IMG/VR virus record: IMGVR_UViG_3300045988_180775
Strand: one strand, 5' to 3'
DNA length: 64,000 nt
Origin: a virus
The notes beneath the pieces are model-generated. The model saw only the letters and a program-made list of their open reading frames with translations. It searched no databases and was not told where the DNA came from. The position numbers and the translations under genes were made by a program. Shown in pieces: positions 2,679-62,855 of this stretch. How positions within the stretch are numbered: the first letter of the stretch is position 1; each line of letters starts with the position of its first letter.

Positions 2679-4433
2679 TCAGGGGTTTGCGGCAAAAAGC
2701 AGGTTACTGATTTCTCCGCACACAGCGTAGATGCCGGCGGTATCTTTCTTTCCGCTGGCTCCGGAGGTAAGTACGACCACGCCGCAGCCCGTGTCAGGAT
2801 TGTAGCACATGAGGTTGTACGCACCGTATGCGCTGCCGGTGTGATAGAACAATCTGCTCTGCCCATAGGTATTGGCTCGCAGACGCAGAGGCTGGCACTG
2901 GTAGAATCCGCCGGACACAGCCTTATCGCCGTGTGACTCCAATGTGGAGACGATGGACGGAGAAAGGTATTGTGCGCCCTCGTATTTGCCATCACCGGCA
3001 AGCAACGCCACAATTTTTCCAAGGTCGTAGGCGCTGATGGTGAGTCCGCCTGCGAATCCACTGCCGTCCGTACCGGGCAGTTCGTCATCAATAGCCTTGA
3101 GCATTTCCTGGTAGGACAGGCCCGTGCTGCCATCGGCACGGTAGAGCACCGCCAGTTTTTTCGTATCGGATACACTCCCTGTTCGGAATGCCGCGTCGAT
3201 GGACAGTGGACGGTAGAGGTAATGTCCAAGCAGCTCGTCCATCGTGCAGCTGTTTGCTCGCTCGACCGCAAGCCCCAGTGCAGAGAAGGCGTAGTTGTTA
3301 TACAGCCAGTTTTCCAAGTTGCCGGAACAGACCTCGCGTGTCGCAGACGAAGACATGAGTCGCGTCTTCATCCCCTCATAGCTTCTTGATACATCCTCCG
3401 GTGCCCTGAGAGAAGATGTATGTGTGAGAACGGAACGGACTGTAATGTGGTCTCCTTCCTGTGCTTTGTGGATGGGAAAACCGAGGTAGGTGTCCAGCTC
3501 TGTATCGAGAGTCATCGTTCCTTCTTCTGCGGAAAGGCTCGCTGCCATACCAACAAGCACTTTTGAGATGGATGCAGCCCGAACTTTCGTATCTGCTGTC
3601 ATGGCTGATACTCCGCGAACCGCCTCTCCATACGCAAAGGTATCTGATACATGGCCGTCCTTAATGTACGCAATCGACAGACCGACCGCACCGTACTTTT
3701 TTGCAATCGCATTGATTCTGTTTTGCAACGCTGCGTGCTGTTCTGTGGCCTGCACCACGGCTGACGCCGGGATTGTCCGGACAACAGGTCCGTTATTCTG
3801 GAGCCAGCAGCCGAGTGCGAGAATCATATCGACAGCTTCTTTATGATTCATCGTGCCTTTCGGCTCGAATCCTTTTTCTGAAGCGGTCAGGATGCCGTTC
3901 TCCATGCACCATTTCACAGCTCTTCTCGCGTAAAGCGGGACCTGCGCGGCGTCAGCGCACGCAAGCAGCGTGCGGGATGAAAGCGGAGCGGCGTCACAGC
4001 CCATCGCCTTCGCCAGACGGGCAGCCATCACAGCGGCCTCATTCCGTGTCAGCGGTGTGTCCGGCTCCAGTACGCCGGCCGCCGTGCCATTTATGATTCC
4101 GTTTGCCTTTGCCCAGCTCACCTGAAGCGCGTAGTATGCGTTCTCCGGAACATCGGGGAACGATGTGCTCTGAACCGTATCAAGCTCCGGGTTTGCGAGG
4201 TTCACCAGCATGGTCAGGAACTGCGCCCGTGTGGTCTTACCTTCTGTCTCAAGCATTTCTTCCAGGATACCGTCCGGCACGCCGGCTTCAAGACTCTGAG
4301 TCGGCTCAGTGTTATACGTTGCGTCTCGCACCTCCGTATCGGTCTCAAATTCTAATGCTGCGGAGCTTGGCGTCGCGAAAAGCAGCAGCAAAAAAGCCGC
4401 AGCAAATGCGGTAAATTTTCTTTTCACGTTCAT
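2679..4433 (-). CDS. secreted SLH-domain serine hydrolase, beta-lactamase/PBP4 family
   Basis: N-terminal signal peptide (MNVKRKFTAFAAAFLLLLFATPSSA). SLH-like repeats (FPDVPENAYYALQVSWAKANGI...LTRNEAAVMAARL). Serine hydrolase motifs SISK (SxxK) and YNN. Confidence 0.75.
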   Translation of the reverse strand: MNVKRKFTAFAAAFLLLLFATPSSAALEFETDTEVRDATYNTEPTQSLEAGVPDGILEEMLETEGKTTRAQFLTMLVNLANPELDTVQSTSFPDVPENAYYALQVSWAKANGIINGTAAGVLEPDTPLTRNEAAVMAARLAKAMGCDAAPLSSRTLLACADAAQVPLYARRAVKWCMENGILTASEKGFEPKGTMNHKEAVDMILALGCWLQNNGPVVRTIPASAVVQATEQHAALQNRINAIAKKYGAVGLSIAYIKDGHVSDTFAYGEAVRGVSAMTADTKVRAASISKVLVGMAASLSAEEGTMTLDTELDTYLGFPIHKAQEGDHITVRSVLTHTSSLRAPEDVSRSYEGMKTRLMSSSATREVCSGNLENWLYNNYAFSALGLAVERANSCTMDELLGHYLYRPLSIDAAFRTGSVSDTKKLAVLYRADGSTGLSYQEMLKAIDDELPGTDGSGFAGGLTISAYDLGKIVALLAGDGKYEGAQYLSPSIVSTLESHGDKAVSGGFYQCQPLRLRANTYGQSRLFYHTGSAYGAYNLMCYNPDTGCGVVVLTSGASGKKDTAGIYAVCGEISNLLFAANP

Positions 4434-17070: not shown

Positions 17071-17442
17071 TCAAGCTGCCATCTGGTACAGCCATGCTTC
17101 AAAGTCTTCATAGTCCATCAGCCGTCCATCCACCTCGACGAATCCAGGCTGCGTTGTGCCGCGAACAACGGAAAAGGAATCTCCGCCGCCACAGAAAACG
17201 CGAATGTTCGTTCTGGAGATGCTCTCGCAGCGCAAGAAATACGAGCCGAGGCGTTCCCAAATTCGGGACATCTCCTCGTCGGTCGCTTCCCAACTGCGGT
17301 TTTGGCTGGTACGGACCTTTGTTGCGGATACGGACAACTCAACCTGCTCCGTATCTTCCGGCAGCCCAAGCTCCGCGCAGACCTCTTTCCACTTTGTTTC
17401 GTCACCGAAACCCCTCTTAAACATCATTGCTTTCATGTTCAT
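17071..17442 (-). CDS. hypothetical protein (123 aa), first gene after cassette copy 5
   Basis: ORF with conserved TIR AAAAAGGAGAAATGAACATG. Confidence 0.5.
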   Translation of the reverse strand: MNMKAMMFKRGFGDETKWKEVCAELGLPEDTEQVELSVSATKVRTSQNRSWEATDEEMSRIWERLGSYFLRCESISRTNIRVFCGGGDSFSVVRGTTQPGFVEVDGRLMDYEDFEAWLYQMAA

Positions 17443-17606
17443 TTCTCCTTTTTGTTTATGAATTTTTTATATATAAAAGCCAGCATCCGCAACGGACGCT
17501 GACTGAACTTTCTTTGTGTTTGAGATACTTCCTTTGTATGCTCTGAGCATACCGGCAAATATGGAAACACGCCTATTTTAATGTTGGGAACCTGAGAACC
17601 GAAGAA
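17443..17606 (-). promoter_or_regulatory. conserved intergenic cassette copy 5
   Basis: Near-identical to copy 4. GGGAACCTGAGAACCGAAGAATAC at 17586-17609. Confidence 0.7.
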
Positions 17607-17680
17607 TACATATCGTCACGCGCAATGTCCGCTTCACGCTGGCGGAACTGCTCGATTGGATTTAAGAAACGGAGAATAGC

Positions 17681-17713
17681 AAAAAAACGCCGCCCATCTG
17701 GGCGGCGTTTCTT
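17681..17713 (-). terminator. rho-independent terminator after sigma gene
   Basis: aaaaaaacgccgcccatctgggcggcgtttctt. On minus strand the stem is followed by TTTTTTT. Confidence 0.75.
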
Positions 17714-18680
17714 ATTCAAGAAAGTCCTGAAGCATCTTCCCTGCCTTTCCGTTGCGTAGCTTATCGAGTGTTTTATCTGTAACCTGACGGACACGCTCTC
17801 GCGTTAAGTCCATTTCGTCCCCGATTTCTTTGAGGGTATAAGCACAACCATCCTCCAATCCGAATCGTAAGCGAAGCACACAGGCGTCTCGTGCGGGCAT
17901 ATCGTGCAGGATTTTGTCCATCGTTTCCCATAGTGCCTTCCCTGACGTTGAAATTTCCGGGTTATCCCACTCGTTATGGCTTGGGATGAATTCCGAAAGC
18001 GGTGTGTTGGAATCGCTTGCGGCGTCCGAATTGACGGGCGCATCCAACGAGTCCGGCTTCCGGTACTGGAGCGAGTGTTGGATGATGCGCAGTTTTTTCT
18101 GCTGCTCCCTTTTTGAAAGGGAATCCCACGCATCCCCCTCCATGTATTTTGCGATTTCTAAAGGGTCATCACAAGGTAAGCCTTTTTGCTGCATTTGTTC
18201 TTTTGCATTATTGACGCTCCGCCTGCCCTCCGCAACATAGATGGGCTTGCGAATGGCTGGGTCCGTCGTGGCAAGTGCTCTTGTGATGTTTTGCCTTATC
18301 CAGAAGGTTGCGTAGGTGGAGAACTTCACATTCCTCGAAATGTCAAAAGAGTCGATGGAACGCATGAGGCCGATGTTGCCCTCCTGAATGAGGTCCATGA
18401 ACACCATAGAATCGGCTGAGTTTATATATTTCTTTGCGATGGACACAACAAGCCGAAGATTGCCCTCAACAACCTTATCTTTCGCCCGTCTTCCTGCTTC
18501 TATGGCCTTCATCAGGTCTTTCTCGATTTCGGGGTCAACTGCATTCCCACTCTCCTCGGCAATCACCCGCAGCGTTTCGAGCTGTTCGGCAGCGGCATTC
18601 CCCTTCTGCGCTTTTTCAATACAGCGATTCGCTTCTACCTGCGGCATAATGGGGATGCTGCCAATTTGGCTGAGATACAT
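17712..18680 (-). CDS. RNA polymerase sigma-70 family factor (regions 1.2, 2, 3, 4), element-encoded
   Basis: DLIQEGNIGLMRSIDSFDISRNVKFSTYATFWIRQNITRALA (region 2.1-2.4). YTLKEIGDEMDLTRERVRQVTDKTLDKLR (region 4.2 HTH). VAMYLSQIGSIPIMPQ (region 1.2). Track start 18884 is a TTG inside the promoter -35, so I trimmed to ATG 18680 (GTG 18686 also possible). Confidence 0.85.
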   Translation of the reverse strand: MYLSQIGSIPIMPQVEANRCIEKAQKGNAAAEQLETLRVIAEESGNAVDPEIEKDLMKAIEAGRRAKDKVVEGNLRLVVSIAKKYINSADSMVFMDLIQEGNIGLMRSIDSFDISRNVKFSTYATFWIRQNITRALATTDPAIRKPIYVAEGRRSVNNAKEQMQQKGLPCDDPLEIAKYMEGDAWDSLSKREQQKKLRIIQHSLQYRKPDSLDAPVNSDAASDSNTPLSEFIPSHNEWDNPEISTSGKALWETMDKILHDMPARDACVLRLRFGLEDGCAYTLKEIGDEMDLTRERVRQVTDKTLDKLRNGKAGKMLQDFLE

Positions 18681-18855
18681 CGCCACATGGTCGCCGATAT
18701 TTCCCGGCTGCTTCGCTTCGGTCTCCTGTTCATTCGAAGCTGCGATTTCTTCTGTTTCAGGCTGCTTTTCAATGGCTTCATAGGCAAGCGCACGGTCAGC
18801 GGCTAAATTACTGGTATTCGTGATGTCAACCACCCCCCCTTCATTGAATGCAGCA

Positions 18856-18884
18856 ATTATACCACACAATAGCTTACTTGTCAA
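18856..18884 (-). promoter_or_regulatory. sigma-A-type promoter (TTGACA-17-TGGTATAAT) upstream of sigma gene
   Basis: Minus strand TTGACAagtaagctattgtgTGgTATAAT. Member of a 7-copy promoter family. Confidence 0.65.
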
Positions 18885-18932
18885 TCAAAAGGCCGCCAGC
18901 GATGTGCTGACGGCCTTCCAGGATGGGAGAGA

Positions 18933-19436
18933 CTATTTTTGCTGTTGTGCTCGGAGTTGCTCCACCTCCGCCCTCCAGCGCGGTGTGGCCGTACTGATTG
19001 CCTCAACGGTACTTGGCGTGGTGGAGAGAGCCAGAATATCGGCTTTCGTCTTCACTCCTTTCAGACGGCGACACATCTCCTCGTAGGTCGTGCTGTTGTC
19101 TGCCGTAATCCAACAACCGCAGATGTCGTTTGAGCCGTCCTCGTTGTGCCGGCTGGCGGTAGTGGGAATCTCAATGCACCAGAGGGCGAACTCGGAATAT
19201 TCGGTGCTGCGGAATACATCCTGCACAAAGGGGTTTGTTTTCTTGAGCTGCTCCACAAGAGGACGCACGCAGTTTTTTTCCTGTTCATCCCTCCTTTGCG
19301 CAAGCCATATATTTTGCAATTCGAGAAAATGCGTTTCCTCGCCGCTTAATCTTTTCCCGTCAGCCGCCTTCTGAATGAGTTGCTTTCTCCGCTCCAAAAG
19401 CTCTTCAGCCGTTGGGAACTTACCGTTTTCAAACAT
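18933..19436 (-). CDS. hypothetical protein (167 aa)
   Basis: ORF. Confidence 0.5.
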   Translation of the reverse strand: MFENGKFPTAEELLERRKQLIQKAADGKRLSGEETHFLELQNIWLAQRRDEQEKNCVRPLVEQLKKTNPFVQDVFRSTEYSEFALWCIEIPTTASRHNEDGSNDICGCWITADNSTTYEEMCRRLKGVKTKADILALSTTPSTVEAISTATPRWRAEVEQLRAQQQK

Positions 19437-19440
19437 GATA

Positions 19441-19956
19441 TTATACCTCCAAAATTTCGATTCCGTACTTTTCCAACATAAGTTTGCGCTTCATGAGGTA
19501 CTTTTCGGTTCGTTTTCCCTTCGCGTCTTCCACGATACGCTCACCGTTGCGGAGATAGACGAAATCTGCCTTGTAGACCATTGGTCGAACCCGCTTGCCA
19601 TTTGGCCGTGTATAGCCCTCGACCAGCGTGAAGTCCTGCTGGAGCCGCAGGTCCTGGATTGCACCAACCTTGTACTGCAAATACAGTTCATCGAAGCGCC
19701 GTGCCTCCCGCTTGCTGGGGAATTTCACGGTTTCTCCATCCACCACGCGAATGACCTTTTTATTGCGATATTTGGATGGCTCAGCAGCGTCCGCTTCTTT
19801 CGGCTGTTTTTGCCTTTTCTGTGCTTCCGGCTGTTTTTTTGCTCGCTGCTGTTTCTGCTCGTCGAGCTTTGCACGCACCTGAATCTGTGCGGAAAGCGGC
19901 AGGCTATTGATGTCAATACCCACCTTCAGTTCCTCCGCCTGTTTGTGGCGCAGCAT
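19441..19956 (-). CDS. DUF1064-family phage protein (putative nuclease/resolvase-like)
   Basis: C-terminal YRNKKVIRVVDGETVKFPSKREARRFDELYL...DFTLVEGY...YKADFVYL...VEDAKG matches the DUF1064 pattern as I recall it. The K/Q-rich N-terminus may be over-called. Confidence 0.55.
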   Translation of the reverse strand: MLRHKQAEELKVGIDINSLPLSAQIQVRAKLDEQKQQRAKKQPEAQKRQKQPKEADAAEPSKYRNKKVIRVVDGETVKFPSKREARRFDELYLQYKVGAIQDLRLQQDFTLVEGYTRPNGKRVRPMVYKADFVYLRNGERIVEDAKGKRTEKYLMKRKLMLEKYGIEILEV

Positions 19957-20311
19957 TTTGGTTGCTTCCTTCTCGCAGCAGAATCAAATTCATGACCCTC
20001 CATACCGTCCAGATACACAGATGGCGAACTATGCTTCTGCTGGTGCCGTGCAGGTCGGCGATTTGCGAAAACGTCATTCTGTCACGAAAATACTTTTGGA
20101 CGATATCGCGGTTTCGCTCAGGAAGTGTGTCCAGCGCTTCATCGAACATCTCGTTAAAGCCCGGTGTAAATGAAATTTGATTCTTACCCCAGGCTGAAAT
20201 TTGATTTTTACACCAGGCAAAGGATGTATCGTACATAATGGCCGCCTTCCGCCACTCCTCCGGGGCGAACTCAGGCTTGTTAATCTTGTCTGTCGTTTGT
20301 TTCTTTGTCAT
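19913..20311 (-). CDS. small sigma-70 region-4-like HTH protein (132 aa)
   Basis: LPERNRDIVQKYFRDRMTFSQIADLHGTSRSIVRHL resembles sigma region 4/ECF HTH. Trimmed to ATG 20311 with RBS GGAAGGAGAAACAAAA. Contains a 24-bp tandem duplication (20171-20218). Confidence 0.45.
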   Translation of the reverse strand: MTKKQTTDKINKPEFAPEEWRKAAIMYDTSFAWCKNQISAWGKNQISFTPGFNEMFDEALDTLPERNRDIVQKYFRDRMTFSQIADLHGTSRSIVRHLCIWTVWRVMNLILLREGSNQNAAPQTGGGTEGGY

Positions 20312-21404
20312 TTTTGTTTCTCCTTCCAACAATCTCTCTTCGTGAGCTGCGCCACAGCATGAGCAGCATCTCGCTGACCGGTCTGGTTCGGTCCTTCCTC
20401 ACGGCTTTCCTCACGCATCGCAGATGCCCGCCGTCCGGGCAAAGCACACCGACGCCGTATGGCACAGTATCCTTCACCGCTTCGAAGACGTCTGCGGGCA
20501 TAACGTAGTAGTTGTAGTCCGCGATGAAGTTGTGCCCGTTAGGAGATTTGAAATCCTCCACAGAGGACTTGACCTCGTAGGCGTAGAAGTCCCCCTTCTC
20601 AATGCCGGAGGTCGAATTGTTGAGCGGCTGAAAGCGCATATAGTCCACGCGGATTTTGTGGTTCGTAGAGTAGTCGAATGTGACCTCTCTCGCCCAGTAG
20701 ATGCGTGGGTCGTTGCGCGGGTCGATGTATCGCTCCAGCATGGCAGAGAGCTGGCGAGTGTGTTCCTTCCGGGTGAAGGCATCACTCGTTTCCGGACAGA
20801 ATTGAGCTGGCTTTCCAAGGATGAAATGGAACGGCAGAGCCTTTTCCAGTACGTCGATAATATTCTGAAGGGTCCCCTGCCCGCATTGGCGCAGATTCTT
20901 CAGTTTGCCGCTCTCTATCAGTCGAACAACATCGCCGATACTTTGGGCACCACTGAACATAAGGCAGTTCTTGGTGCGAGTCGAGAAATTGAGGCACTGA
21001 AACGGAACAGAATCGCACAACTCCTCGATTTTTTTCCGGTTGCCATTCTCAATGGCTTCCTTCAAAGCAGAGGCGAGAGGGCTGCCTGCAAACCGGCGCA
21101 TTTCTTTCAGGATACCCCCCGCATATTTGGGGTGACGCAGCCTCCTTATGGCGAGGTCGAAGCAAGAGTGGAACTTGCCGATGTCAATTTCCAGTGCGTT
21201 TGCGCATTGTGTTGGTGTAAGACCGTCGCGGTAGCGTTTTAAGATAGCTTCCCGCTCCAACTCAGGGAATGTGGCGATGGCAGCGTCTACAGCTGCGTCG
21301 AAAGAGTCGGAGAACTCAGCACACGGCATACACAAGCAATCCTGCATCAAATTCTTTCGCCATTCTACTGACGAGCGAAGCAGGAAACGCTCCTCAGTGT
21401 TCAT
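20280..21404 (-). CDS. three-part protein: sigma region-4-like HTH, then RNAP alpha-CTD-like helix-hairpin-helix, then C-terminal PD-(D/E)xK-like domain
   Basis: EREAILKRYRDGLTPTQCANALEIDIGKFH (region-4-like). LNFSTRTKNCLMFSGAQSIGDVVRL...LKNLRQCGQGTLQNIIDVL (alpha-CTD-like). GDFYAYEVKSSVEDFK (D..E.K nuclease-like). Confidence 0.55.
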   Translation of the reverse strand: MNTEERFLLRSSVEWRKNLMQDCLCMPCAEFSDSFDAAVDAAIATFPELEREAILKRYRDGLTPTQCANALEIDIGKFHSCFDLAIRRLRHPKYAGGILKEMRRFAGSPLASALKEAIENGNRKKIEELCDSVPFQCLNFSTRTKNCLMFSGAQSIGDVVRLIESGKLKNLRQCGQGTLQNIIDVLEKALPFHFILGKPAQFCPETSDAFTRKEHTRQLSAMLERYIDPRNDPRIYWAREVTFDYSTNHKIRVDYMRFQPLNNSTSGIEKGDFYAYEVKSSVEDFKSPNGHNFIADYNYYVMPADVFEAVKDTVPYGVGVLCPDGGHLRCVRKAVRKDRTRPVSEMLLMLWRSSRREIVGRRNKNDKETNDRQD

Positions 21405-21616
21405 TCCGCTCCAACCTCCTCGTCATACTCTTCCGGGGTGATGATTTCTATGTCTTCCGCACTGTAGCCCAGTGCGTCAAGACACAGAAGTTCCGCGACC
21501 TTCTCTTTGTTGATGGATGCAGCAATTTCCTCGTATGAGATATCCCTCTCTGCCGCCTCAAAGCTCAGCTGTACCACAAATGTGGGCAGCCGAAAACAAA
21601 CTCTGTAATTTGCCAT
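21401..21616 (-). CDS. small acidic hypothetical protein (71 aa)
   Basis: ORF. 4-nt overlap with upstream gene. Confidence 0.4.
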   Translation of the reverse strand: MANYRVCFRLPTFVVQLSFEAAERDISYEEIAASINKEKVAELLCLDALGYSAEDIEIITPEEYDEEVGAE

Positions 21617-21631
21617 TTTTTGAATCCCTCC

Positions 21632-22129
21632 TTAAAAATCGTGGACGTACTGCCAACTCTGCGGTGCTCTCGCAAGTGCGAAGCAGTCGAGGCTCTTGGG
21701 CCGGTCATAGGCCTGCACATCAGAGATGTGCCATCCGTATCCCACGCGGCCACAGAGGTAGTCCTCTGCTTGCTTCACGGTGAGGCAGGCGTCCTCATAC
21801 AGTTTCCCCGCTGGGGTGTAGTTTCCAGGTTGTGCGTTGACACAGTATTGAAGCGGCGCGTTGCTGCCCATATAGCCCACGCGCACCACACGGTCAATTT
21901 CGGTACAGGTAAACTCCCCTACCACAAGACCGTTTGCTTTGTAAATTTTGCCGCCGCTGTGGATTTCAAGAATTTCACCTGGGTTCTTTGTGCCCTTACA
22001 GGAGCAGTAGAGAAATACCATGAAGGGCGGCGTAAGGTTCGGTCTGGACAGGCGCAGCTCCACGGTCTTCTGGCCCGACAGGATTTTCTGGAGCCACTCA
22101 GGTCGGATGCTGAGCATGATGTTTTTCAT
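21632..22129 (-). CDS. ASCH (PUA-like) domain protein
   Basis: MKNIMLSIRPEWLQKILSGQKTVELR matches the ASCH N-terminal pattern. Trimmed to ATG 22129 with RBS GGAAAGGAGTTTTCCT. Confidence 0.6.
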   Translation of the reverse strand: MKNIMLSIRPEWLQKILSGQKTVELRLSRPNLTPPFMVFLYCSCKGTKNPGEILEIHSGGKIYKANGLVVGEFTCTEIDRVVRVGYMGSNAPLQYCVNAQPGNYTPAGKLYEDACLTVKQAEDYLCGRVGYGWHISDVQAYDRPKSLDCFALARAPQSWQYVHDF

Positions 22130-22170
22130 AGGAAAACTCCTTTCCGACGGCAAAAGCCGCCTTGTCTTGC

Positions 22171-22198
22171 TTGACAAAGCGGCTTGCTGGTGTATAAT
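22171..22198 (+). promoter_or_regulatory. plus-strand sigma-A consensus promoter (TTGACA-16-TGTATAAT)
   Basis: TTGACAaagcggcttgctggtgTATAAT. The only strong plus-strand promoter seen. Drives a short transcript ending at the terminator about 90 nt downstream. Confidence 0.6.
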
Positions 22199-22452: not shown

Positions 22453-22481
22453 ATCTTACCAAAAAGGCCCCGCTTTGTCAA
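22453..22481 (-). promoter_or_regulatory. promoter for the 28-aa peptide mRNA (TTGACA-17-TAAGAT)
   Basis: Minus strand TTGACAaagcggggcctttttggTAAGATtacaat. About 76-nt structured leader. Confidence 0.45.
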
Positions 22482-25897: not shown

Positions 25898-25926
25898 ATT
25901 ATACCACACATTAGCTTGATTGTCAA
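25898..25926 (-). promoter_or_regulatory. sigma-A-type promoter (TTGACA-17-TGGTATAAT) for helicase
   Basis: Minus strand TTGACAatcaagctaatgtgTGgTATAAT. Confidence 0.65.
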
Positions 25927-30474: not shown

Positions 30475-30503
30475 ATTATACCACACATTAGCTTAAAAGT
30501 CAA
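30475..30503 (-). promoter_or_regulatory. sigma-A-type promoter (TTGACT-17-TGGTATAAT) for ung
   Basis: Minus strand TTGACTtttaagctaatgtgTGgTATAAT. Confidence 0.65.
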
Positions 30504-30536: not shown

Positions 30537-31076
30537 TCACGCGAAGTACCACTCCCCATTGCTGAATTCAACGAACTCTTCCTCGGCGGCGAAATGCACC
30601 TCCAAAAAAAGCTCTCCTTCGCCATTATCTACGACCACCACATCGTAGTCGTCGTCTCCATAGTAGGAGATGATATCGTGATGCTTATTCGCTTTCTCGT
30701 CGATGATGCACATATCGCGCGGCACCTTGTAGAGCAACGCTCCATCCTTCCGCCGCGTACAGCACGCGGCATCGTAGAAAAGGAAAGTCTCTCTGTTGTC
30801 TTCGTCGGCGTTTTTGAATTCCCTAATACCGTTCTTTTCTTTCTCCGCAAGTTCGTTAAGCAAAGCTACGACCTTCAGCGTTTTTACATTCAACATAGAG
30901 TTCCTCCTCAGTAATTCGTACAGCATCCCATAGAGATACTCCGGCGGGCTGCATTTCTCCTGCTCCCAGTTTCGGACTGTTCCCAGAGGAATTCCGGTGG
31001 TAAGGGCAAATTCACGCTGGGACAGCTTAAAATCCTGACGCTGCTTTCGGATGCGGTTCTGCTCGTGTTCAATCAT
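30537..31076 (-). CDS. XRE-family (Cro/CI-type HTH) transcriptional regulator
   Basis: LSQREFALTTGIPLGTVRNWEQEK helix-turn-helix. Trimmed to ATG 31076. Confidence 0.7.
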   Translation of the reverse strand: MIEHEQNRIRKQRQDFKLSQREFALTTGIPLGTVRNWEQEKCSPPEYLYGMLYELLRRNSMLNVKTLKVVALLNELAEKEKNGIREFKNADEDNRETFLFYDAACCTRRKDGALLYKVPRDMCIIDEKANKHHDIISYYGDDDYDVVVVDNGEGELFLEVHFAAEEEFVEFSNGEWYFA

Positions 31077-31128
31077 ACTTATTTCAACCACCCTTAATAA
31101 TTTGTAGTGCGCAATCTAAGTATTTTTC

Positions 31129-31158
31129 AATATAGCACCGGCATTCTGGCTTGTCAAG
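31129..31158 (-). promoter_or_regulatory. promoter for XRE regulator gene (TTGACA-18-TATATT)
   Basis: Minus strand TTGACAagccagaatgccggtgcTATATT. Confidence 0.5.
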
Positions 31159-32776: not shown

Positions 32777-32805
32777 ATTATACCACATAACACCTTGCAA
32801 GTCAA
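32777..32805 (-). promoter_or_regulatory. sigma-A-type promoter (TTGACT-17-TGGTATAAT) for flotillin gene
   Basis: Minus strand TTGACTtgcaaggtgttatgTGgTATAAT. Confidence 0.65.
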
Positions 32806-41259: not shown

Positions 41260-42131
41260 TAAAACAAATCCTCCTCGTCAAGTTCTTCATCTTCCCCATC
41301 CGCGTCGCCTTCGGCGTCAGAATTATCCTCTGCCGCAGACTCCAGCTGCGTTTCACACGCAGGGGGATTATCGTCAGGTTCCTCGGCGTCAGGCATCTCG
41401 TTAGTGTCATCGTTACTCAATTCCACATCGTCGGCCCCGCCCAAATCCGGCAACGGCAGGCCAGATTCCTCAACGGTGCTGCTGTCGATATCCTCCGTAA
41501 ATCCGTCCAGTTCCAACGAGGTATCGTCATCCTCTTCCAGGACTTCCACTTCAACGAAGGATTGGTTGCGCTCTGTTTTATGGAGATTGCCGGCGCTGCC
41601 GCTCGGCGTTTCATCGCCATCGTCATCTTCATCAATGTAGTTGCCCTCAAGTGAACTGTCAGGTGCAAACTCGAACGTTTTGCCTTCGACCATCTCCTGA
41701 CTCGCCCGTTCAGCGGCCTTCTTTTCCTTTCTGGCATCCAGAAAATCCCTGAGTTTGTCGCCCATGCCATCTTCCGACATCATGAGCTTAATGGGGGCTT
41801 CCTTCAACGCTCGTGCTTCGTTGTTGAACAACATCAGCCCCCGTTTTCTTCGCCATGAAAAGAAAATCTTGATAAAGGTGGACAGCGGGTCGCCGTTCAC
41901 GCCAAACAGGCCAAGCAGACCAAGTGGTGCGGAAAAAAATATGACCAGGGATATTTTTGTGGTGATAGGAACTGAAATGACATTCCAAAAGAAAATTGCC
42001 AATACCCCCGAAATCAATCCTCCTTCCACTACATTGCGTGTCTTTAACTGCCCTTGAAATAGTCTGGATTCTCCCATAAAATTTTCTGGAATAATGAACT
42101 GTTTCAAGTCCTCGTTACGCTTATCGCTCAC
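41259..42131 (-). CDS. conjugation membrane protein (VirB3/TcpE/Orf17-like N-terminal TM hairpin, acidic C-terminus)
   Basis: Two TM helices (GLISGVLAIFFWNVISV, LVIFFSAPLGLLGLFGV). Directly upstream of and overlapping the VirB4 gene start. Confidence 0.5.
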   Translation of the reverse strand: MSDKRNEDLKQFIIPENFMGESRLFQGQLKTRNVVEGGLISGVLAIFFWNVISVPITTKISLVIFFSAPLGLLGLFGVNGDPLSTFIKIFFSWRRKRGLMLFNNEARALKEAPIKLMMSEDGMGDKLRDFLDARKEKKAAERASQEMVEGKTFEFAPDSSLEGNYIDEDDDGDETPSGSAGNLHKTERNQSFVEVEVLEEDDDTSLELDGFTEDIDSSTVEESGLPLPDLGGADDVELSNDDTNEMPDAEEPDDNPPACETQLESAAEDNSDAEGDADGEDEELDEEDLF

Positions 42132-43472: not shown

Positions 43473-43524
43473 TGCTATTGCCTCCTTTGCGTAATTTGGG
43501 GCATCTTAATGCCCTACACTTTTA

Positions 43525-43552
43525 TTATTACAACCTTTCGTTCAAAAGTCAA
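43525..43552 (-). promoter_or_regulatory. sigma-A-type promoter (TTGACT-16/17-TAATAAT) for S1-domain gene
   Basis: Minus strand TTGACTtttgaacgaaaggttgTAATAAT. Confidence 0.45.
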
Positions 43553-43629: not shown

Positions 43630-44151
43630 TTACCCGATGATAGTGAGTACATAGGACGATTCGATGTCCGTTCTCGGAATCAATCCGACAATGGAACTGC
43701 GGCTGTCAAGGCTGTTGTTTCGATTATCCCCCAGCACAAAGTAATAGCCATCCTCCACGGTGAGAGGAAACGATATACCATCGTCATATTCGATGTTGGT
43801 CGGGGTATTCGTGTACGGTTCACTCAGCGCGATTCCGTTGCGATAGACCACCCCCTGTTCGAAATCAATGTCGATGGTATCACCGGGGCAACCAATAATG
43901 CGCTTAACGATATTTTCATCCAGACCGCTCGAATTGCAAACAACAATGCTCTCAAACTCCAGATTCGGCTTAATGTGATTTGTCAGAATCACACTATTGT
44001 CCGCAAGCGTCGGCACCATAGAAGGGCCGGACACCACAACAACATTGAACAGGATTCGGAACAAAAGAAGAGCGATAATAAGCCCCTCCAGGGAACCCTT
44101 GAGCACTTCACGGCTCCATACAGTGCGGTTGGTGAGATTTTGTTCTTTCAT
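43630..44151 (-). CDS. type I signal peptidase (S26 family)
   Basis: Catalytic-Ser box GPSMVPTL and GDNRNNSLDSR box. Trimmed to ATG 44151 with RBS AGAGGTGATTCCA, because track GTG 44160 lies too close to the TSS. Confidence 0.85.
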   Translation of the reverse strand: MKEQNLTNRTVWSREVLKGSLEGLIIALLLFRILFNVVVVSGPSMVPTLADNSVILTNHIKPNLEFESIVVCNSSGLDENIVKRIIGCPGDTIDIDFEQGVVYRNGIALSEPYTNTPTNIEYDDGISFPLTVEDGYYFVLGDNRNNSLDSRSSIVGLIPRTDIESSYVLTIIG

Positions 44152-44176
44152 TGGAATCACCTCTTCTTTACGCTTA

Positions 44177-44205
44177 TATTATACCACACTTTATCTTATT
44201 TGTAA
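44177..44205 (-). promoter_or_regulatory. sigma-A-type promoter (TTTACA-17-TGGTATAAT) for signal peptidase
   Basis: Minus strand TTTACAaataagataaagtgTGgTATAAT. Confidence 0.6.
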
Positions 44206-44293
44206 AGTATCGAATGAAGTGACCTTACATACAACGGCGCAAGCAAAAAGGCACGTCAACGAAATGTTGGCGTGCCTGTGGCCTGTGCTGATA

Positions 44294-46578: not shown

Positions 46579-47904
46579 TCACCGTCCGCCGTAAGCGGGC
46601 CAGTATGTATTTTGCGCGAGATTGCCTCGCTCCACAGAATCTCCGACGCCATCACGCGGACGCTCAAATTTCAGGCACCACAGGAGTCCGGCCTCATACG
46701 CGCCATCTGATGTATTAGGCAGGTCCTTGATGGCGTTCCACGCTGTACGCTCCGAAGATTCGATTTCGGTCTTGAAAAACCAGAGCTGTCCTTCTATAGA
46801 GTCTTCAGCAAAACCATTTTCCTGCAAAAAACTCAGTAGTGCTGTCTTTCTGCTATAGGACCACTGGCATAAACCATAACCTTCGCCCAGTCCATCTCCG
46901 TATGCGTTTTTATCCTCATGTCTTGCCGGGTTAAAACCAGATTCATTTTGGATATTTGCCATAACCCCGCAGGCGGCAGCATTGTTCAGGCCAAGCTCCT
47001 CTGTCAGGAAAGAGAACACCTTCTCCTTGTTGGTGCCGCCCTGGATTTCCCAAAATGCTGTTTCAGGATATTCTACATGAACGATATAGCCGTTTTTCGC
47101 GGCTTTGTATGTGGTCGATGCTGTATAGTGGTTTTTTGCAACACCGCCGCCTGGGATTTGACCGCCGCCAGTTGTGTTGCCCTCGACCGTGTACCATCCA
47201 GTTTCATCCACCTCAACAATGATACCGATGTGATTAAAAGGCTTAGCCAGCCTTAGATTACCAGTCTCTGAAAAAAACATAAGGTCGCCCGGAACTGGTG
47301 TATAAGAACCACCGAACGGGGTTGTGCTTCGAACGGGATAGTATGCGTAGCCGTATCTTCCCGTGAGTTTCTTGAACATACTTGAGCAACTGGCATCCTT
47401 TGGAATTGTATTTTCCAAAAGGTCACATTCATTTGCGCACCAAGAGACAAACGCCGCGCACCACTGTCCGGAACGGTGGCTGCCATAGTACCAGTCGTTG
47501 TATTTGACATAATTCGAGTTCGGCGGGATTTCAATGGAATCATCCAAGCCGAGTTGGCTGAGCGCGACTTCAACGATATTGCTGCCATTTCCGCCTTCTC
47601 CAGTCGAAACACCAAGGTATTGCTTTGTGGTCAGAATGTTATTCCGATACCACTCTTCCTGATACCCTGCTTGCCGCTCATATTCGTTTCCGGTGTCGTC
47701 ATCCGTCCAGTCCTTCTCAAGATACTTATTATAGTCCCAGCCGAAGGAGGTTTCATACGATTCCTGGACTTCATCCCAATGCTCACCAAATGCGCCGCTT
47801 ACGCTCTTGCCGTCAATGGCAAATACGGTAGCTGTCATGCAGGATACCGAGAGAATACCGCACAGCAGTGAGGAAAGCATCTTTTTCCAGATATGGGTAG
47901 TCAT
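46579..47904 (-). CDS. secreted bifunctional cell-wall hydrolase (CHAP domain plus lysozyme-like domain)
   Basis: Signal/TM N-terminus. CHAP Cys motif GQWCAAFVSWCANE with downstream His. C-terminal GYGLCQWSYSRKTALL lysozyme-like pattern. Confidence 0.75.
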   Translation of the reverse strand: MTTHIWKKMLSSLLCGILSVSCMTATVFAIDGKSVSGAFGEHWDEVQESYETSFGWDYNKYLEKDWTDDDTGNEYERQAGYQEEWYRNNILTTKQYLGVSTGEGGNGSNIVEVALSQLGLDDSIEIPPNSNYVKYNDWYYGSHRSGQWCAAFVSWCANECDLLENTIPKDASCSSMFKKLTGRYGYAYYPVRSTTPFGGSYTPVPGDLMFFSETGNLRLAKPFNHIGIIVEVDETGWYTVEGNTTGGGQIPGGGVAKNHYTASTTYKAAKNGYIVHVEYPETAFWEIQGGTNKEKVFSFLTEELGLNNAAACGVMANIQNESGFNPARHEDKNAYGDGLGEGYGLCQWSYSRKTALLSFLQENGFAEDSIEGQLWFFKTEIESSERTAWNAIKDLPNTSDGAYEAGLLWCLKFERPRDGVGDSVERGNLAQNTYWPAYGGR

Positions 47905-49352: not shown

Positions 49353-51998
49353 TTACTTTCGCTTATCGCGCAAGGGACCTACGCGAGGAGGCTTCTTGCC
49401 CTTGCCCTGTTCCTCCGGCTTGGGGCCTCCTCCGCCATTGCGGGAGCCGTCATCCCGCTGCCTGCCTTCGCTGCGCGGGGCAGATTCCGGAGAAGAAGGT
49501 GTCTGCGGCGTACCGGAAGCCGGCGTACCGGACGACTGGTCGTTGATGACTTCGATACGCTGTGTAGGCGTATAGCTGGGAGGCTGATTGATGATGGTGT
49601 TTTGTGTGACGGTCCGAGGTTCACCGTCGCTTCCGCCCGAAGCAGCACCCGCATCTCTGGCGGGAGGTTCGTAAGAGTGGGCTTCTCCACCGCCGGAGGG
49701 AGTCTCGTAAGTACGACGCTCACCGCCTGCGGCACCACCTGCGTCTTCGGAACGACGCTCATAAGTGTGCGTCTCTCCACCGCCGGAAGGAGTCTCGTGA
49801 GTACGGGAACTTTCTGTTCCTCTGCCGGTATTCGGCAGAGAATCGTCCGTATGAGGCTCATACCGCGTACTTGCAGCAATATTCTGTGCGACAGGTCTGC
49901 CCTGCTCAAATCTGGGGTTCTCGATATCCTGAAGTCCGCCGCCTTCCTGAACAGCGCGAGACCAATCTTCGACGCTGCCCTGAGTCTGGTCCACATCCAT
50001 TGCTCTCGCATAGAAAATCTCACCGTTCTTCGAGGGAATCTGCTGCATCTGAGCCTGCTGGATAGAGGACATCTGCTTATAGGCAGTCTCGTCCATGATT
50101 TCCAGACGCTTGAACTTCGGGACTTCCGTTCCGTCCTCATAGGTGCGGCCGGAACTGCCGGGAACGGCGCAGAGACCGCTGACCACTCGGCCGCCGCCCC
50201 ACTGATTCCCTGCTTCATCAGTGTATAGGGGCTGTGTCTCTGCACGGATATTGCTGAGGCGACTGGCCGCCGCCGTGCCGGACTGGTCGCCTACGCGGAG
50301 ATTTTCTCCGAAAGTATTGGAGAGTGCTGCCTGCGCAAGCGTATCGTTGCCAGAAATATTCTTTCTGTCGTTGAAAAGGACTTCCTGCGCGACAACAGGC
50401 GAGCCATGCGCGAGCGTATTCGCAAGCGTGCTCTGATACGCATTGGTCGAGTCTTCCTGCTGCGCCTTCATATTCTCCAGATTTTCCGGAGATAGGTTGG
50501 CGGGATTGACGTCATGGAACTCCGTGTCCGGAGCAAAATCAGTCAATTCGGTCTTATCAAAGTTATCCTGAATATGCGCGGCCACAGCGCTGTCCGGGCC
50601 AACCAGCATTCCGTCCTTGTCATCCCCAAACGGAAACGAGGTCATCAGGCCAGCATTTTTGGCTTCCGGAGACAGTTCGAAATTGGCTTTGTTGTCGCCG
50701 TCGGGTCCAATCAAGGCACAACCTGCACCGTTTGTCTCCAAATTCATGCGGGCAAACTGCTGTGCAGACATACCCATCTTCTTGGCATTGTCCTGGAAAT
50801 CCTGTTGACCTGTACGGCCTCCACCGTTCTCTCCGACGGGTCCGCTCTGCCGCTGGACCTTCTCCTGCCATGCGGCGGCACTTTCCTGAGAGCGTTTTGC
50901 CGTTGCCACAGCGTTTGCATTGCGGGGGGTGAACTGGTTCATGCCCCAGTCTCCAGCAGGAGTTTTCGCGTAATCCCTGGCCGCCTTTCTCGCGGCACGG
51001 CTGTCCGCCGGACTATTCCCCTGAGCGAATGCGTCATTGTACGCTCGCTTCCCACGAAAGAGATTGCCGAACGTGCTGTTGTTGCCGGAAAGAGCGTCTC
51101 CTTTGGATGCCTTCTGAGCTGCACCGCCAAATGCGTGCTTGAGTGCATAGCCGACTGCCATAGCGTTTCCAAGAATGCCTTCTCCGGTCGTCGGAACACC
51201 GATGCCGAGTTGCTGCATATAGGAATCCACCCGCTGTGCGATTTTGCACATGGTCAGGCACATAATCAGCTTTGCAATAACGGAGTTTCCTCCGCTCGTT
51301 GAACTGAGTGCGGAAATAGACAGTTTGGTAAAGAGTACGGAGAGCGACATCAGGGCGCATTCACCGCAGAACATTCCTACCCATCGTTGAAATACAGTAG
51401 CCGTCGCGGCAGAGGACAGGAACGGGTAAATGAGAGGCGATGTATAAACAAGAACGCCGACCATCAGGTATCGCTCAACACACTCCAGCAACAGCTTGAT
51501 AAGGTTCCATGCAATCGCAATGATTAGAACGAGTGAGACAAGCAGCCCAGCAGCTCCGACACCTACGGCAACGGACAAGTCTGTTAAGAGACTGTCGGGT
51601 ATGCCAAAATGATGGGTGATAGCGTCAGACCCAACAAAGATGTCGTATGGGACTTTCGCGATTCCCACAACTGCGGAAAGAAGATAGCCGCCGAGATAAA
51701 TGAGAACCGTGGCGAGTGCGGCTCGAACAAGGATTTGCGTAGGAGTATCCTGCGCTTTGGACAGGCTGCCAAGGAATACTTTGAACAAATTGACAGCCGC
51801 AATGGCAAGAACCAATCCCAGCCCGCAGGCTTGTAGAATTGCATAGGCTGTACCGAAATATGGAAAATTCTGATAAAGGTCTCCCAGGGTAAAGTTCAGG
51901 AGACCCCCATCGTTTCCATTGCCGAAGAAGAAATTGACAAACAACTGCAATCCTTCTCCGACCGCACTGAGCAGCCAGGAAAATATAGTTTCGAGCAT
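49353..51998 (-). CDS. VirB6/TcpH-like polytopic conjugation channel protein with Gly/Pro-rich repetitive C-terminus
   Basis: At least 8 predicted TM helices in the first about 360 aa. C-terminal low-complexity repeats (TPSGGGETHTYERR / TPSGGGEAHSYEPP). Confidence 0.6.
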   Translation of the reverse strand: MLETIFSWLLSAVGEGLQLFVNFFFGNGNDGGLLNFTLGDLYQNFPYFGTAYAILQACGLGLVLAIAAVNLFKVFLGSLSKAQDTPTQILVRAALATVLIYLGGYLLSAVVGIAKVPYDIFVGSDAITHHFGIPDSLLTDLSVAVGVGAAGLLVSLVLIIAIAWNLIKLLLECVERYLMVGVLVYTSPLIYPFLSSAATATVFQRWVGMFCGECALMSLSVLFTKLSISALSSTSGGNSVIAKLIMCLTMCKIAQRVDSYMQQLGIGVPTTGEGILGNAMAVGYALKHAFGGAAQKASKGDALSGNNSTFGNLFRGKRAYNDAFAQGNSPADSRAARKAARDYAKTPAGDWGMNQFTPRNANAVATAKRSQESAAAWQEKVQRQSGPVGENGGGRTGQQDFQDNAKKMGMSAQQFARMNLETNGAGCALIGPDGDNKANFELSPEAKNAGLMTSFPFGDDKDGMLVGPDSAVAAHIQDNFDKTELTDFAPDTEFHDVNPANLSPENLENMKAQQEDSTNAYQSTLANTLAHGSPVVAQEVLFNDRKNISGNDTLAQAALSNTFGENLRVGDQSGTAAASRLSNIRAETQPLYTDEAGNQWGGGRVVSGLCAVPGSSGRTYEDGTEVPKFKRLEIMDETAYKQMSSIQQAQMQQIPSKNGEIFYARAMDVDQTQGSVEDWSRAVQEGGGLQDIENPRFEQGRPVAQNIAASTRYEPHTDDSLPNTGRGTESSRTHETPSGGGETHTYERRSEDAGGAAGGERRTYETPSGGGEAHSYEPPARDAGAASGGSDGEPRTVTQNTIINQPPSYTPTQRIEVINDQSSGTPASGTPQTPSSPESAPRSEGRQRDDGSRNGGGGPKPEEQGKGKKPPRVGPLRDKRK

Positions 51999-61210: not shown

Positions 61211-61774
61211 TCACATCTGCAAATAGGCATATAACAGATGCGGTGTTTTTTCGTTGATGTAGACGAGATATGGGCAATTCGGATAAAACGTCACCTTGCG
61301 GGGAAGTGTAAAGGTGAAATAAGACGGAACATCATCGTCTGTCCGGAAACACACTTTCGTGGAGCCTTTCAATCCGTTGGAAATTGCATTTGTCTGTACG
61401 CTGTAGCAAATCATCGGCAGTTCCCTAATAGTGCCGTCCTTAAAATCCAACCGCAGAGAAACCGCACAGTATAGAAGATAGACGGGGAAAAGAAGAAACA
61501 TGAGCAGCCGCACGGATAGAAGCGTGATGGACAACACGATGACTGTCAGCGTCATCAGTACCGCGACCGTACAGAGCATGACTTCCTTGGACTGCAAGGC
61601 GGTCGGCAGCTCGATGTCCCGCAGCTCCTGCCAGATAGATTTCTTCTCCCCCTCCGGTTCCGGTGCCGAGTCCGAAGCCTGTTTCCCTGCGGCATTTTCG
61701 GCCCGATTGGCGTCATCCTGCTCCAGCAGGGCACGGAGATGCGGGAATTCAATAATTTTTGACTTCTTCGGCAT
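61211..61774 (-). CDS. membrane protein (187 aa)
   Basis: Trimmed to ATG 61774 with RBS GGGAGGTAGTC. Two TM helices (LCTVAVLMTLTVIVLSITLL, LLMFLLFPVYLLYCAV). Confidence 0.5.
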   Translation of the reverse strand: MPKKSKIIEFPHLRALLEQDDANRAENAAGKQASDSAPEPEGEKKSIWQELRDIELPTALQSKEVMLCTVAVLMTLTVIVLSITLLSVRLLMFLLFPVYLLYCAVSLRLDFKDGTIRELPMICYSVQTNAISNGLKGSTKVCFRTDDDVPSYFTFTLPRKVTFYPNCPYLVYINEKTPHLLYAYLQM

Positions 61775-62855
61775 GACTACCTCCCAAAAGCGGTTCACCG
61801 TTTATCGTGAGTGAGTGGAAATATTCGTATGTTTTGGGCGTGCTTTTTTTCAGAAGCTGCATGGACTTGCTGCCATCCGAATGTGTCAGCAGATAAGCGA
61901 AATAATCTGCAAAATATTCGTTGCTGCTTGTTTTGGCATAGCTGCGGAAGGGTGCATCTTTTGCTTCTGCGTTGAAGAGTTCCTGACTTCTGGCAGGAAA
62001 GCTGAGCAGTTCCCCTTCTATAAAATGCCCGAACTCATGCAGGACTGCCCCCGCTTCCGAAACATAAATGGTTCGCTCCTGATAGCTGGTGACGCCGGTG
62101 CAGGACACATTATACAGCTTGCCCATTTTCGCCGTATACGCATGGTCGATAACGAGCTTCCATCCGTGCTCATTGAACGCATTGAGGACGGTATCCGGAA
62201 GATAGCGCAGTTCCATAAGATAATCGTTGAGATTCGCGTCAGAGCGATTTTCGCACACGACCGGAGATTTAGGCGCTTCGACCACAAATTGATGTGTCAA
62301 TGTCTCATATAGATAGACAGCCGCCTCTCCCCTCGTTACTCTTTCACCTACGGTCGAGGACGCAGAACATAAGCCCAGCTCTTGTCCAACACGCAGGACA
62401 TTTTCCTCACGGATAAGTGCCTTCCCTCCATAGAGTACATTGTCGTAGACCGGTATCTGTGCGGCATCGAACGCACTTTCCAGAACCGCACTCCGGCAGA
62501 GTTGTGTTTCTGGTGAGACGACAGCAGTCTCACTCAGCCAACCGTTGCCGTAAGCAGCATCCACGCCGCTCTGACTCTGCTCCATCCATCCATTGCCTTT
62601 CATTTGGACACCATAGGCTCGGCAGAGCATGACCGCCCATTGCCGAACGGTAATGGGGGCGTCCGGGGAGAACTGGCCGACGCCAGTCCCTGTGACGATT
62701 TGCCGTTCTGAGTGATAGACAACGCTATCATGATACGGTGCCGTTTCTGGCACATCGGAAAAGCCGGCGTCAGTGGCAGACGCTGTAACGGGAAAAGTCA
62801 GTATCAGCGCCAGAGTAAGAATTGCCAGCGCTGTCCTTCGCAGACCTCGAAACAT
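61749..62855 (-). CDS. secreted SLH-domain zinc metalloprotease (HExxH)
   Basis: Signal peptide MFRGLRRTALAILTLALILTFPVTASA. SLH-like segment (GQFSPDAPITVRQWAVMLCRAYG). VLHEFGHFIEGE zinc-binding motif. Confidence 0.65.
   Translation of the reverse strand: MFRGLRRTALAILTLALILTFPVTASATDAGFSDVPETAPYHDSVVYHSERQIVTGTGVGQFSPDAPITVRQWAVMLCRAYGVQMKGNGWMEQSQSGVDAAYGNGWLSETAVVSPETQLCRSAVLESAFDAAQIPVYDNVLYGGKALIREENVLRVGQELGLCSASSTVGERVTRGEAAVYLYETLTHQFVVEAPKSPVVCENRSDANLNDYLMELRYLPDTVLNAFNEHGWKLVIDHAYTAKMGKLYNVSCTGVTSYQERTIYVSEAGAVLHEFGHFIEGELLSFPARSQELFNAEAKDAPFRSYAKTSSNEYFADYFAYLLTHSDGSKSMQLLKKSTPKTYEYFHSLTINGEPLLGGSHAEEVKNY

Follow-up and report, generated by a model that had tools for sequence, protein, structure and literature searches.

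The question raised by the locus described here is what a mobile element does with a sigma factor of its own. The gene lies on the minus strand of a 64,000-nucleotide stretch of DNA recorded in IMG/VR as IMGVR_UViG_3300045988_180775 (the window in the following), in which all long open reading frames (ORFs) are on that strand. A first-pass annotation had proposed that the encoded protein switches promoter specificity and is the master regulator of a leader cassette that occurs seven times in the window. Our analysis confirms, by homology, a complete element-borne factor of the sigma-70 family with regions 1.2, 2, 3 and 4. The explanation that we prefer, and to which we give about an even chance, is that of a primary-like (group-2-type) paralogue encoded by a conjugative element, which would act as a surrogate of the housekeeping sigma factor with positive feedback and without any switch in specificity.

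A primary-like sigma factor

Two Pfam domains score above cut-off in the ORF, Sigma70_r2 (PF04542, 64 bits, E 1e-17) and Sigma70_r4 (PF04545, 51 bits, E 9e-14). A region 3 domain was not reported in the Pfam scan of the ORF; region 3 is present, as the protein aligns through it to SigA structures and the helices modelled at residues 192-256 reach pLDDT values of 88-96. Solved SigA/RpoD chains in the PDB align over residues 47-390 (numbering of the 390-residue database gene model, see below) with E values of about 1e-50 (best 3e-50). The best NCBIfam models are those for RpoD/SigA (215-229 bits), followed by RpoS/SigB (184-198 bits). All scores stay below the curated cut-offs (NF004208, 229 versus 555 bits; PRK09210, 217 versus 572; RpoD_Cterm, 201 versus 354), so that by score the protein does not rank as a group 1 equivalog. 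It does not belong to group 3 (SigB/F/G, SigK/E, RpoH) or to the extracytoplasmic function (ECF) sigma factors either, whose models give 76-94 bits, and it possesses regions 1.2 and 3.

An AlphaFold model built from a 50-sequence alignment has a mean pLDDT of 86.4, with values above 90 over regions 2 and 4. Confidence is high from residue 48 of the 373-residue protein to the C-terminus and low in the linker between regions 3 and 4 (residues 257-291). The N-terminus consists of an isolated helix (residues 9-22) between disordered stretches (1-7 and 24-46, pLDDT below 50). Foldseek searches with this model returned only primary sigma factors in holoenzyme complexes (probability 1.00, 326-370 aligned columns); the TM-scores are low because the free model has a different domain arrangement. 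The parts of the protein map to the DNA as follows.

18765-18800, minus strand: remnant helix of region 1.1
18651-18692, minus strand: region 1.2
about 18270-18464, minus strand: region 2
18225-18254, minus strand: region 3.0
18066-18137, minus strand: clade-specific insertion in region 3
17748-17840, minus strand: helix-turn-helix of region 4.2

Among ten natural sequences of the gene, variable codons comprise 16 synonymous and nine nonsynonymous ones, and in regions 2-4 the ratio is ten to one. By this measure purifying selection acts on the protein.

When 1.84 billion representative proteins were searched, the matches beyond the protein's own 50% cluster were P0122 at 50% identity, three relatives at about 38% (P0125, P0126 and P0128, approximately 213-232 bits) and then thousands of ordinary RpoD/SigA proteins at 170-200 bits. 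The identity to SigA from Subdoligranulum, a housekeeping sigma factor of the Oscillospiraceae, is 40% over regions 1.2-4.2, as compared with 57-79% among housekeeping sigma factors. Two insertions absent from SigA are common to the window sigma, P0122, P0126 and P0128, one of two residues in region 2.1/2.2 and one of about 15 residues in region 3. When the insertion columns are removed, neighbour-joining groups these four proteins with a bootstrap value of 70/100 and the window sigma with P0122 at 100/100. The window sigma and its three metagenomic relatives would thus form a separate clade of element-borne sigma factors, a grouping to which long-branch attraction may contribute.

The gene neighbourhoods agree among the four: a gene for a UvrD helicase and/or DUF1064 protein is found upstream of each sigma gene, and downstream of it small unknown ORFs follow in a long array of shared orientation. 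The contig that carries P0122 (L014) shares 60-80% protein identity with the window element in eight genes and is, on that evidence, a true relative. Further searches did not enlarge the clade. The identities obtained by tblastn in plasmid and phage databases did not exceed 41%, a metagenome scan with the clade alignment A6 and the generic patterns FSTYAT[WFI]W and E[GA][NH]LRLVVS returned only ordinary sigma factors (33-42% identity), and an IMG/VR scan with P0126 returned nothing. The literature that we searched holds no description of this sigma factor or of its clade. Sigma factors on mobile elements as such are a known kind; the one described here is a new and abundant member, unusual in combining housekeeping-type specificity with arrays of perfect promoters.

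Start codon and transcription unit

The database gene model of 390 residues starts at TTG 18884, that is, with the first three bases of the -35 box TTGACA of the gene's own promoter, as the first-pass annotation had noticed. It had called the true start ambiguous and considered the first in-frame ATG, and here our analysis leads elsewhere. We aligned the window with nine natural variants of 98.5-99.2% identity (L001 and L101-L108, the latter eight from an IMG/VR scan with the window sigma that returned only copies 98-99% identical). The upstream TTG is out of frame in four of these ten sequences, due to one G fewer just before codon 18, and codon 18 is GTG in nine of them and TTG in one. The loss of frame upstream together with the conservation of codon 18 places the start at GTG 18833 with a product of 373 residues, which this comparison settles as the predicted gene model. 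Three other candidates were rejected. TTG 18884 is out of frame in the four variants and located inside the -35 box; ATG 18680 (M69), the first in-frame ATG, would delete the beginning of region 1.2 and the conserved ADRxxxYxAIEK helix that is also present in P0122; and TTG 18829 is out of frame and meets a stop after eight codons. Since all 390-residue entries begin inside the -35 box, the database gene model is corrected accordingly. The removal of region 1.1 expected earlier applies to most of the region; with the GTG start the window sigma keeps its last helix (ADRALAYEAIEK) and nothing else of it, whereas P0122, P0126, P0128 and Subdoligranulum SigA have a complete region 1.1. The transcription unit is made up of the following elements.

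18887..18919, minus strand: terminator-like hairpin closing the upstream operon (genes 18933..22177), centroid -24.9 kcal/mol, z -3.7
18879..18884, minus strand: -35 hexamer TTGACA, invariant in 10/10 natural variants
18862..18866, minus strand: TGTGG (TRTG / extended -10 TGn) directly 5' of the -10 box, invariant in 10/10 variants
18856..18861, minus strand: -10 hexamer TATAAT, invariant in 10/10 variants
18848..18850, minus strand: predicted transcription start, from promoter geometry, about 7 nt past the -10 box
18834..18842, minus strand: Shine-Dalgarno-like sequence GAAGGGGGG, with a G-run of polymorphic length
17712..18833, minus strand: sigma coding sequence, 373 residues, GTG start, stop codon TAA at 17712-17714
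17681..17707, minus strand: intrinsic terminator of the sigma transcript, CGCCGCCC-AGAU-GGGCGGCG then U7, -25.6 kcal/mol, z -5.07

The upstream hairpin is followed by UUUUGA and then immediately by the -35 box. The promoter matches the consensus at 12 of 12 positions, with TTGACA, a 17-nt spacer ending in TGTGG, and TATAAT; after the stop codon comes the terminator, an 8-bp GC-rich stem (stem-loop 17707-17688 plus U7). The near-perfect sigma-A promoter and the strong terminator described in the first-pass annotation are both borne out. Hairpins on both sides and a promoter of its own make the sigma gene an insulated unit, and this anatomy supports its prediction as monocistronic under a consensus promoter.

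A G-run (18833..18839) extends over the ribosome-binding site (RBS) and the start. Five variants have seven G, four have six, and one has six followed by T, which leaves five or six G before the start codon, whose first base prolongs the run. Its length changes the spacing of the Shine-Dalgarno sequence to the start codon.

Predicted DNA recognition and the consensus promoter family

Residues are numbered as in Escherichia coli, with offsets that agree with the alignment coordinates to the solved SigA chains, and the roles given to them are those that we take over from the structural and genetic literature on sigma-70. In alignments to SigA the recognition helix of region 4.2, TRERVRQ, is that of primary sigma factors, with R584, E585, R586, R588 and Q589 all present. 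Region 2.4 reads FWIRQNITR and keeps Q437, T440 and R441, and region 3.0 keeps E458, the reader of the extended -10 TG. A -35 helix identical to that of primary sigma factors and the retention of the readers of position -12 and the extended -10 motif lead us to predict the use of consensus promoters. Our expectation is that the protein recognizes TTGACA and a -10 box of the TGnTAnnnT type, possibly with altered melting. The specificity switch put forward earlier does not accord with these residues.

Such promoters are abundant in the element. When the window was searched on both strands with the pattern TTGACN15TGNTATAAT, allowing up to two mismatches, eight matches were obtained as compared with 0.96 expected from shuffled sequences, and none of 100 shuffles reached eight. 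All eight are on the coding strand, four are perfect, and all precede genes. One is the promoter of the sigma gene itself; the other seven are predicted targets.

22453..22481, minus strand: consensus promoter, two mismatches, ahead of the operon ending just before the sigma gene
25898..25926, minus strand: consensus promoter, no mismatch, ahead of a UvrD-like helicase gene
30475..30503, minus strand: consensus promoter, no mismatch, ahead of a UDG-family gene
31129..31157, minus strand: consensus promoter, one mismatch, ahead of gene 30537..31091
32777..32805, minus strand: consensus promoter, no mismatch, ahead of an SPFH/flotillin gene
43524..43552, minus strand: consensus promoter, one mismatch, ahead of an S1-domain gene
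44178..44206, minus strand: consensus promoter, one mismatch, ahead of gene 43630..44160

The TGTGG motif of the sigma promoter recurs in the other members of this set, and several have a common spacer, AAGCTAATGTGTGG (e.g. 18862..18878, 25904..25920 and 30481..30497, minus strand). Related elements have conserved promoter spacers of their own, AAAATATGG in the case of L018. Such spacers may serve as the operator of a repressor that the element encodes, or they may stem from recent duplication.

In the related elements L017 and L018/L019 six to nine consensus promoters occur per approximately 20 kb, none of them on the opposite strand, and in L017 and L018 one ends 33-35 nt upstream of the sigma gene. 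A repeated promoter motif that includes the promoter of the sigma gene itself, the logic known from SigN (see below), is therefore found in the window, in L017 and in L018. Judged by this distribution, the consensus family is a promoter set that travels with the sigma clade.

For core binding, promoter use, feedback and biological purpose we infer the following course of events. Host SigA would start expression of the sigma gene from its perfect -35/TRTG/-10 promoter, which should serve any primary sigma factor, with transcription beginning about 16 nt upstream of GTG 18833. The element sigma would then associate with host core RNA polymerase and start transcription at TTGAC(A/T)-17-TGnTATAAT promoters, of which the element has at least eight. 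It would feed back on its own promoter and capture core polymerase for the consensus promoters of the element. Any action at the seven cassettes would proceed via their TATGCT -10 box and a separate factor at their GGTTC repeats.

The seven-copy cassette

The cassettes, each of about 170 nt, lead operons of the element; the first of them lies directly downstream of the sigma terminator, and its link to the sigma factor is conjectural.

61079, 56673, 17551, 15510, 12320, 8323 and 2088, minus strand: -10 boxes of the seven cassettes
17438..17625, minus strand: first cassette
about 17596-17620, minus strand: GGTTC repeats of the first cassette
17546-17551, minus strand: -10 box TATGCT of the first cassette, with the leader AAAGGAAGTAT
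17478-17504, minus strand: hairpin of the first cassette, then the tail TTTATATATA and an RBS
17442, minus strand: ATG following the first cassette's RBS

Each cassette has three GGTTCY direct repeats 8 bp apart at approximately -70 to -48. The leader AAAGGAAGTAT is followed by a 12-bp hairpin, TTTTATATAT and an RBS. No -35 box is conserved at 16-18 nt from TATGCT, where the hexamers AGGCGT, AAGGCG, GCGGAG, GTGGCA, GGTGAT, TCTGCA and TCTGTA are found, and there is no TG motif. Pairing of the leader hairpin is preserved by compensatory changes (three of ten pairs are doubly changed and none is broken in eight sequences), and the hairpin scores as terminator-like. Together with the T-run it resembles either a terminator in the leader or the 3' terminus of an RNA of about 65 nt. 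A terminator-like leader implies that the downstream operons may need antitermination. Rfam at gathering threshold gave no match over the whole window, so that the leader belongs to no described RNA family; tRNA genes were likewise not found in the window.

The first-pass annotation had taken the cassette for a promoter not read by sigma-A, and comparison with L017 speaks against this view. The homologous cassettes of L017 have a TTGACT-17-TGGTATAAT promoter, a leader with AAGGAAGTAT, a hairpin, a T-run with ATATA and a ribosome-binding site. At the position of their TATAAT the window has TATGCT (seven of seven copies) and L014 has TATACT (three of three). Across the -10 variants TATAAT, TACAAT, TATTAT, TACATT, TATTCT, TATGCT and TATACT, variation is confined to positions 3-5, with 1, 2 and 6 always the same, and this is the signature of a primary-type -10 hexamer. 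The cassette is best described as a putative -35-less promoter of the sigma-70 type that needs an additional factor and has a conserved leader; evidence for a new sigma specificity is absent from it.

Two proteins encoded upstream of the sigma gene deserve mention in this connection. The first (20280..21404, minus strand, 374 residues) combines a helix-turn-helix resembling sigma region 4 with an RNA polymerase alpha-subunit C-terminal domain (alpha-CTD; PF03118, E 9e-7), and the second (19913..20332, minus strand, 139 residues) consists of a sigma region 4 helix-turn-helix alone. An alpha-CTD protein is also encoded in L017 (20931-21368). Both types are possible candidate partners for the GGTTC repeats. 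Within its 9.8 kb L014 has cassettes and neither of these genes.

Alternative explanations

Several observations weigh against the preferred reading as a surrogate of the housekeeping sigma factor. Six residues of the -10/melting region are changed (W433F, K418S, D445T, R448P, Y425V and H455Y), and the window sigma differs at 15 of the 72 positions that are conserved to at least 90% in 46 other primary-like sigma factors, with W433F, K418S, D445T and R448P among the 15; it may treat the -10 box otherwise than SigA does. The derived residues W433F/I, Y425V, K418S and H455Y (regions 2.3-3.0) are common to the window sigma and P0122, exactly those sigma factors whose elements, and only theirs, have -35-less GGTTC/TATRCT cassettes, and the canonical-residue proteins P0126 and P0128 go with consensus promoters. 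This pattern fits co-evolution of sigma factor and cassette, though it amounts to a single phylogenetic event and a weak correlation. Finally, the need for a host-like sigma factor is not obvious when the promoters are already ideal for host SigA.

The same pattern is part of the case for the proposal of the first-pass annotation that a dedicated alternative sigma factor acts as master regulator of the cassettes. Host SigA would drive the element sigma, which, alone or with an element-encoded partner, would drive the seven -35-less cassettes, and the cassette-led operons, which probably serve establishment, would follow a temporal programme in two steps. Five cassettes in succession do in fact lie immediately downstream of the sigma gene, which heads an array of cassette-led operons, an order kept in three related elements. 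Furthermore, host SigA alone should use promoters without -35 box and TG motif poorly, and the surface of region 4.2 contacted by activators is altered (R596D, H600N, E591T). On the other hand, the base readers of region 4.2 are canonical and the -35 positions of the cassettes unconserved, so that the sigma factor cannot supply -35 specificity, and an extra factor would be needed whichever of the two explanations holds. The -10 box of the cassettes keeps T-12, A-11 and T-7 and is homologous to TATAAT in L017, that is, primary-type. Region 4.2 of P0122 (TRECIRR) differs from that of the window sigma, yet the same type of cassette occurs in both elements. The promoter of the sigma gene itself belongs to the consensus and not to the cassette family. 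Canonical region 4.2, the divergent region 4.2 of P0122 alongside the same cassette, and the primary-type -10 box weaken the cascade to the point that we consider it rather unlikely; it keeps some standing because the derived sigma subclade and the -35-less cassettes occur together. Tight clustering with SigA and identical recognition residues had been named beforehand as the outcome that would speak against it: tight clustering is not seen, the -35 determinants are identical and those for the -10 box largely so.

A more far-reaching proposal would join parts of both explanations. It holds that an undescribed clade of 'portable housekeeping-type' sigma factors exists on large Bacillota conjugative elements and that its window/P0122 branch (W433F/I, Y425V, K418S, with region 1.1 lost in the window sigma) co-evolved with the -35-less GGTTC cassettes. 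In such a cascade from host SigA via the element sigma and an activator to the establishment cassettes, cassette expression would be insulated from the host sigma factor. We put this forward as speculation and deem it unlikely.

A role in takeover of the host machinery appears quite improbable. The protein would displace host SigA from core polymerase after entry or upon induction of transfer and damp host transcription, and its targets would be secondary. The precedent is SigN of the Bacillus subtilis plasmid pBS32, which is positively autoregulated, out-competes SigA and is toxic independently of its regulon (PMC10601692, PMC6751061). The potentially self-amplifying consensus promoter and the loss of the autoinhibitory region 1.1 would suit such a function. 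A protein that reads consensus promoters would, however, not shut off host genes selectively, and the DNA-reading regions 2.4 and 4.2 are under strong purifying selection; moreover, SigN is ECF-like with a distinct promoter motif, so that the analogy is functional only. A captured and decaying host sigA copy without present function, which the N-terminal truncation relative to its relatives and the 15 changed conserved positions might suggest, is strongly disfavoured and barely credible, as over 120 near-identical entries in the databases retain an uninterrupted ORF, nonsynonymous changes are nearly absent from regions 2-4, promoter boxes and start codon are preserved in all ten variants, and synteny is conserved in four diverged elements.

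Comparison with known systems

The group 1 proteins SigA/RpoD are the best matches of the window sigma in NCBIfam, the PDB and Foldseek. Clostridioides difficile SigA (7l7b_F) and Subdoligranulum variabile SigA (L013:1249-2337, next to dnaG) exhibit the same order of regions 1.2, 2, 3 and 4 and an identical -35 helix. The window sigma differs from them by its low identity, the single helix of region 1.1, the two insertions and the six changes in the -10/melting region described above. Its gene resides in a conjugative element beside genes for DUF1064 and UvrD proteins, a type IV secretion system (T4SS) and small ORFs and not in a dnaG-rpoD operon. It resembles group 2 sigma factors (RpoS, mycobacterial SigB, cyanobacterial SigB-E) in the closeness of its regions 2.4 and 4.2 to group 1, in the reduced N-terminus and in its presumed dispensability for the host, and is set apart from them by scores below every family cut-off, its location on a mobile element and its own clade.

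The nearest parallel in logic is SigN (ZpdN) of pBS32, which is first expressed from SigA promoters, activates its own synthesis, drives repeated promoters across the plasmid and competes with SigA (PMC6751061, PMC10601692). The likeness is confined to logic, as SigN is weakly ECF-like and reads ATTTACGTTT...GATATAA, unlike SigA promoters, whereas the window sigma is RpoD-like and associated with the SigA consensus family. RpoD-type sigma factors also occur on phages: PHROG 351 matches with 215 bits over residues 86-389, but the window has the context of a conjugative type IV secretion system, and no phage structural genes were found in it. The C-terminal RpoD-like part of MzaA, the sigma-70 component of the MZA anti-phage system, matches as well (NCBIfam 212 bits, PADLOC 128 bits). 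An MZA defence system was rejected, since 212 bits compare with a cut-off of 800, only model positions 433-715 are covered and the N-terminal part of MzaA is absent. No other PADLOC matches were obtained among the nine neighbouring proteins of the sigma factor.

Repeated regulatory sequences ahead of variable operons of a Gram-positive conjugative element have been described as the establishment-gene regulatory sequences EGeRS1 and EGeRS2 of pLS20/p576, and EGeRS2 of the pLS20 family combines a strong promoter with operators in the form of direct repeats immediately 5' of the -35 box (PMC8708921). The likeness to the cassettes is again one of logic, without sequence similarity; the pLS20-family plasmids are controlled by a ribbon-helix-helix (RHH) repressor and no sigma factor of their own is reported in that paper (PMC8708921).

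The element and its distribution

The window is confirmed, by its complement of VirB4-, VirD4-, PrgI-like and other genes, as part of what is predicted to be a Bacillota conjugative element, in line with the earlier placement of the sigma gene inside a mobile element. Besides those listed below, it contains ERF, UvrD, UDG, primase-like and DUF1064 resolvase genes.

38767-41259: VirB4-like ATPase, conjugation gene
41259-42131: PrgI-like protein, conjugation gene
44294-46570: VirD4 coupling protein, conjugation gene
46579-47904: CHAP/lysozyme hydrolase

Phage origin of the window was considered and rejected, as PHROGs gave it no support (the large unknown ORFs of the window yielded no match to a phage structural protein) and a type IV secretion conjugation system is present instead. 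IMG/VR catalogues the element as viral all the same (eight copies, L101-L108, on contigs of 8-136 kb). The 'Hodor' conjugative megaplasmids of the gut, a similar kind of element, are reported to have been misfiled in the same manner (PMC12934698, a 2026 preprint). Compared by description, their GC content is lower (44.6-47.1%, versus about 52% here), and sigma factors are nowhere mentioned in the paper.

A 99% identical copy sits within a 570-kb contig of an Oscillospiraceae isolate, and the metagenomic contigs that encode exact or near-identical variants of the sigma factor number in the hundreds and reach lengths of up to 200 kb.

Two copies, L105 and L106, otherwise 98.6-98.7% identical, diverge wholly from the window right after the sigma stop codon (17712), a break that may mark a recombination junction where the sigma gene meets the cassette array. 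Among the cargo of the cassette region are two proteins with S-layer homology (SLH) domains (2679..4433 and 61749..62855, both minus strand), which in one accompany a beta-lactamase fold and in the other an ATLF-like metalloprotease; each protein would provide the element with a surface-associated function. Two adjacent 83-nt direct repeats of 76% identity (49633..49805) lie inside an ORF for 881 residues (49353..51998) that has no match in Pfam or PHROGs.

Implications

Judged by the abundance of sigma variants, the element is one of the large mobile elements that are common in gut Clostridia. The special role of its sigma factor is one that we infer. If our reading is correct, a primary-like sigma factor of its own and arrays of perfect promoters could give the element high expression largely independent of the recipient's sigma factor, which matters for its host range, for its fitness cost and for how it becomes established after transfer. 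Within the clade, natural variants of the sigma factor (W433F/I, loss of region 1.1) go together with two promoter architectures, and co-evolution of sigma factor and promoter is open to direct test in them.

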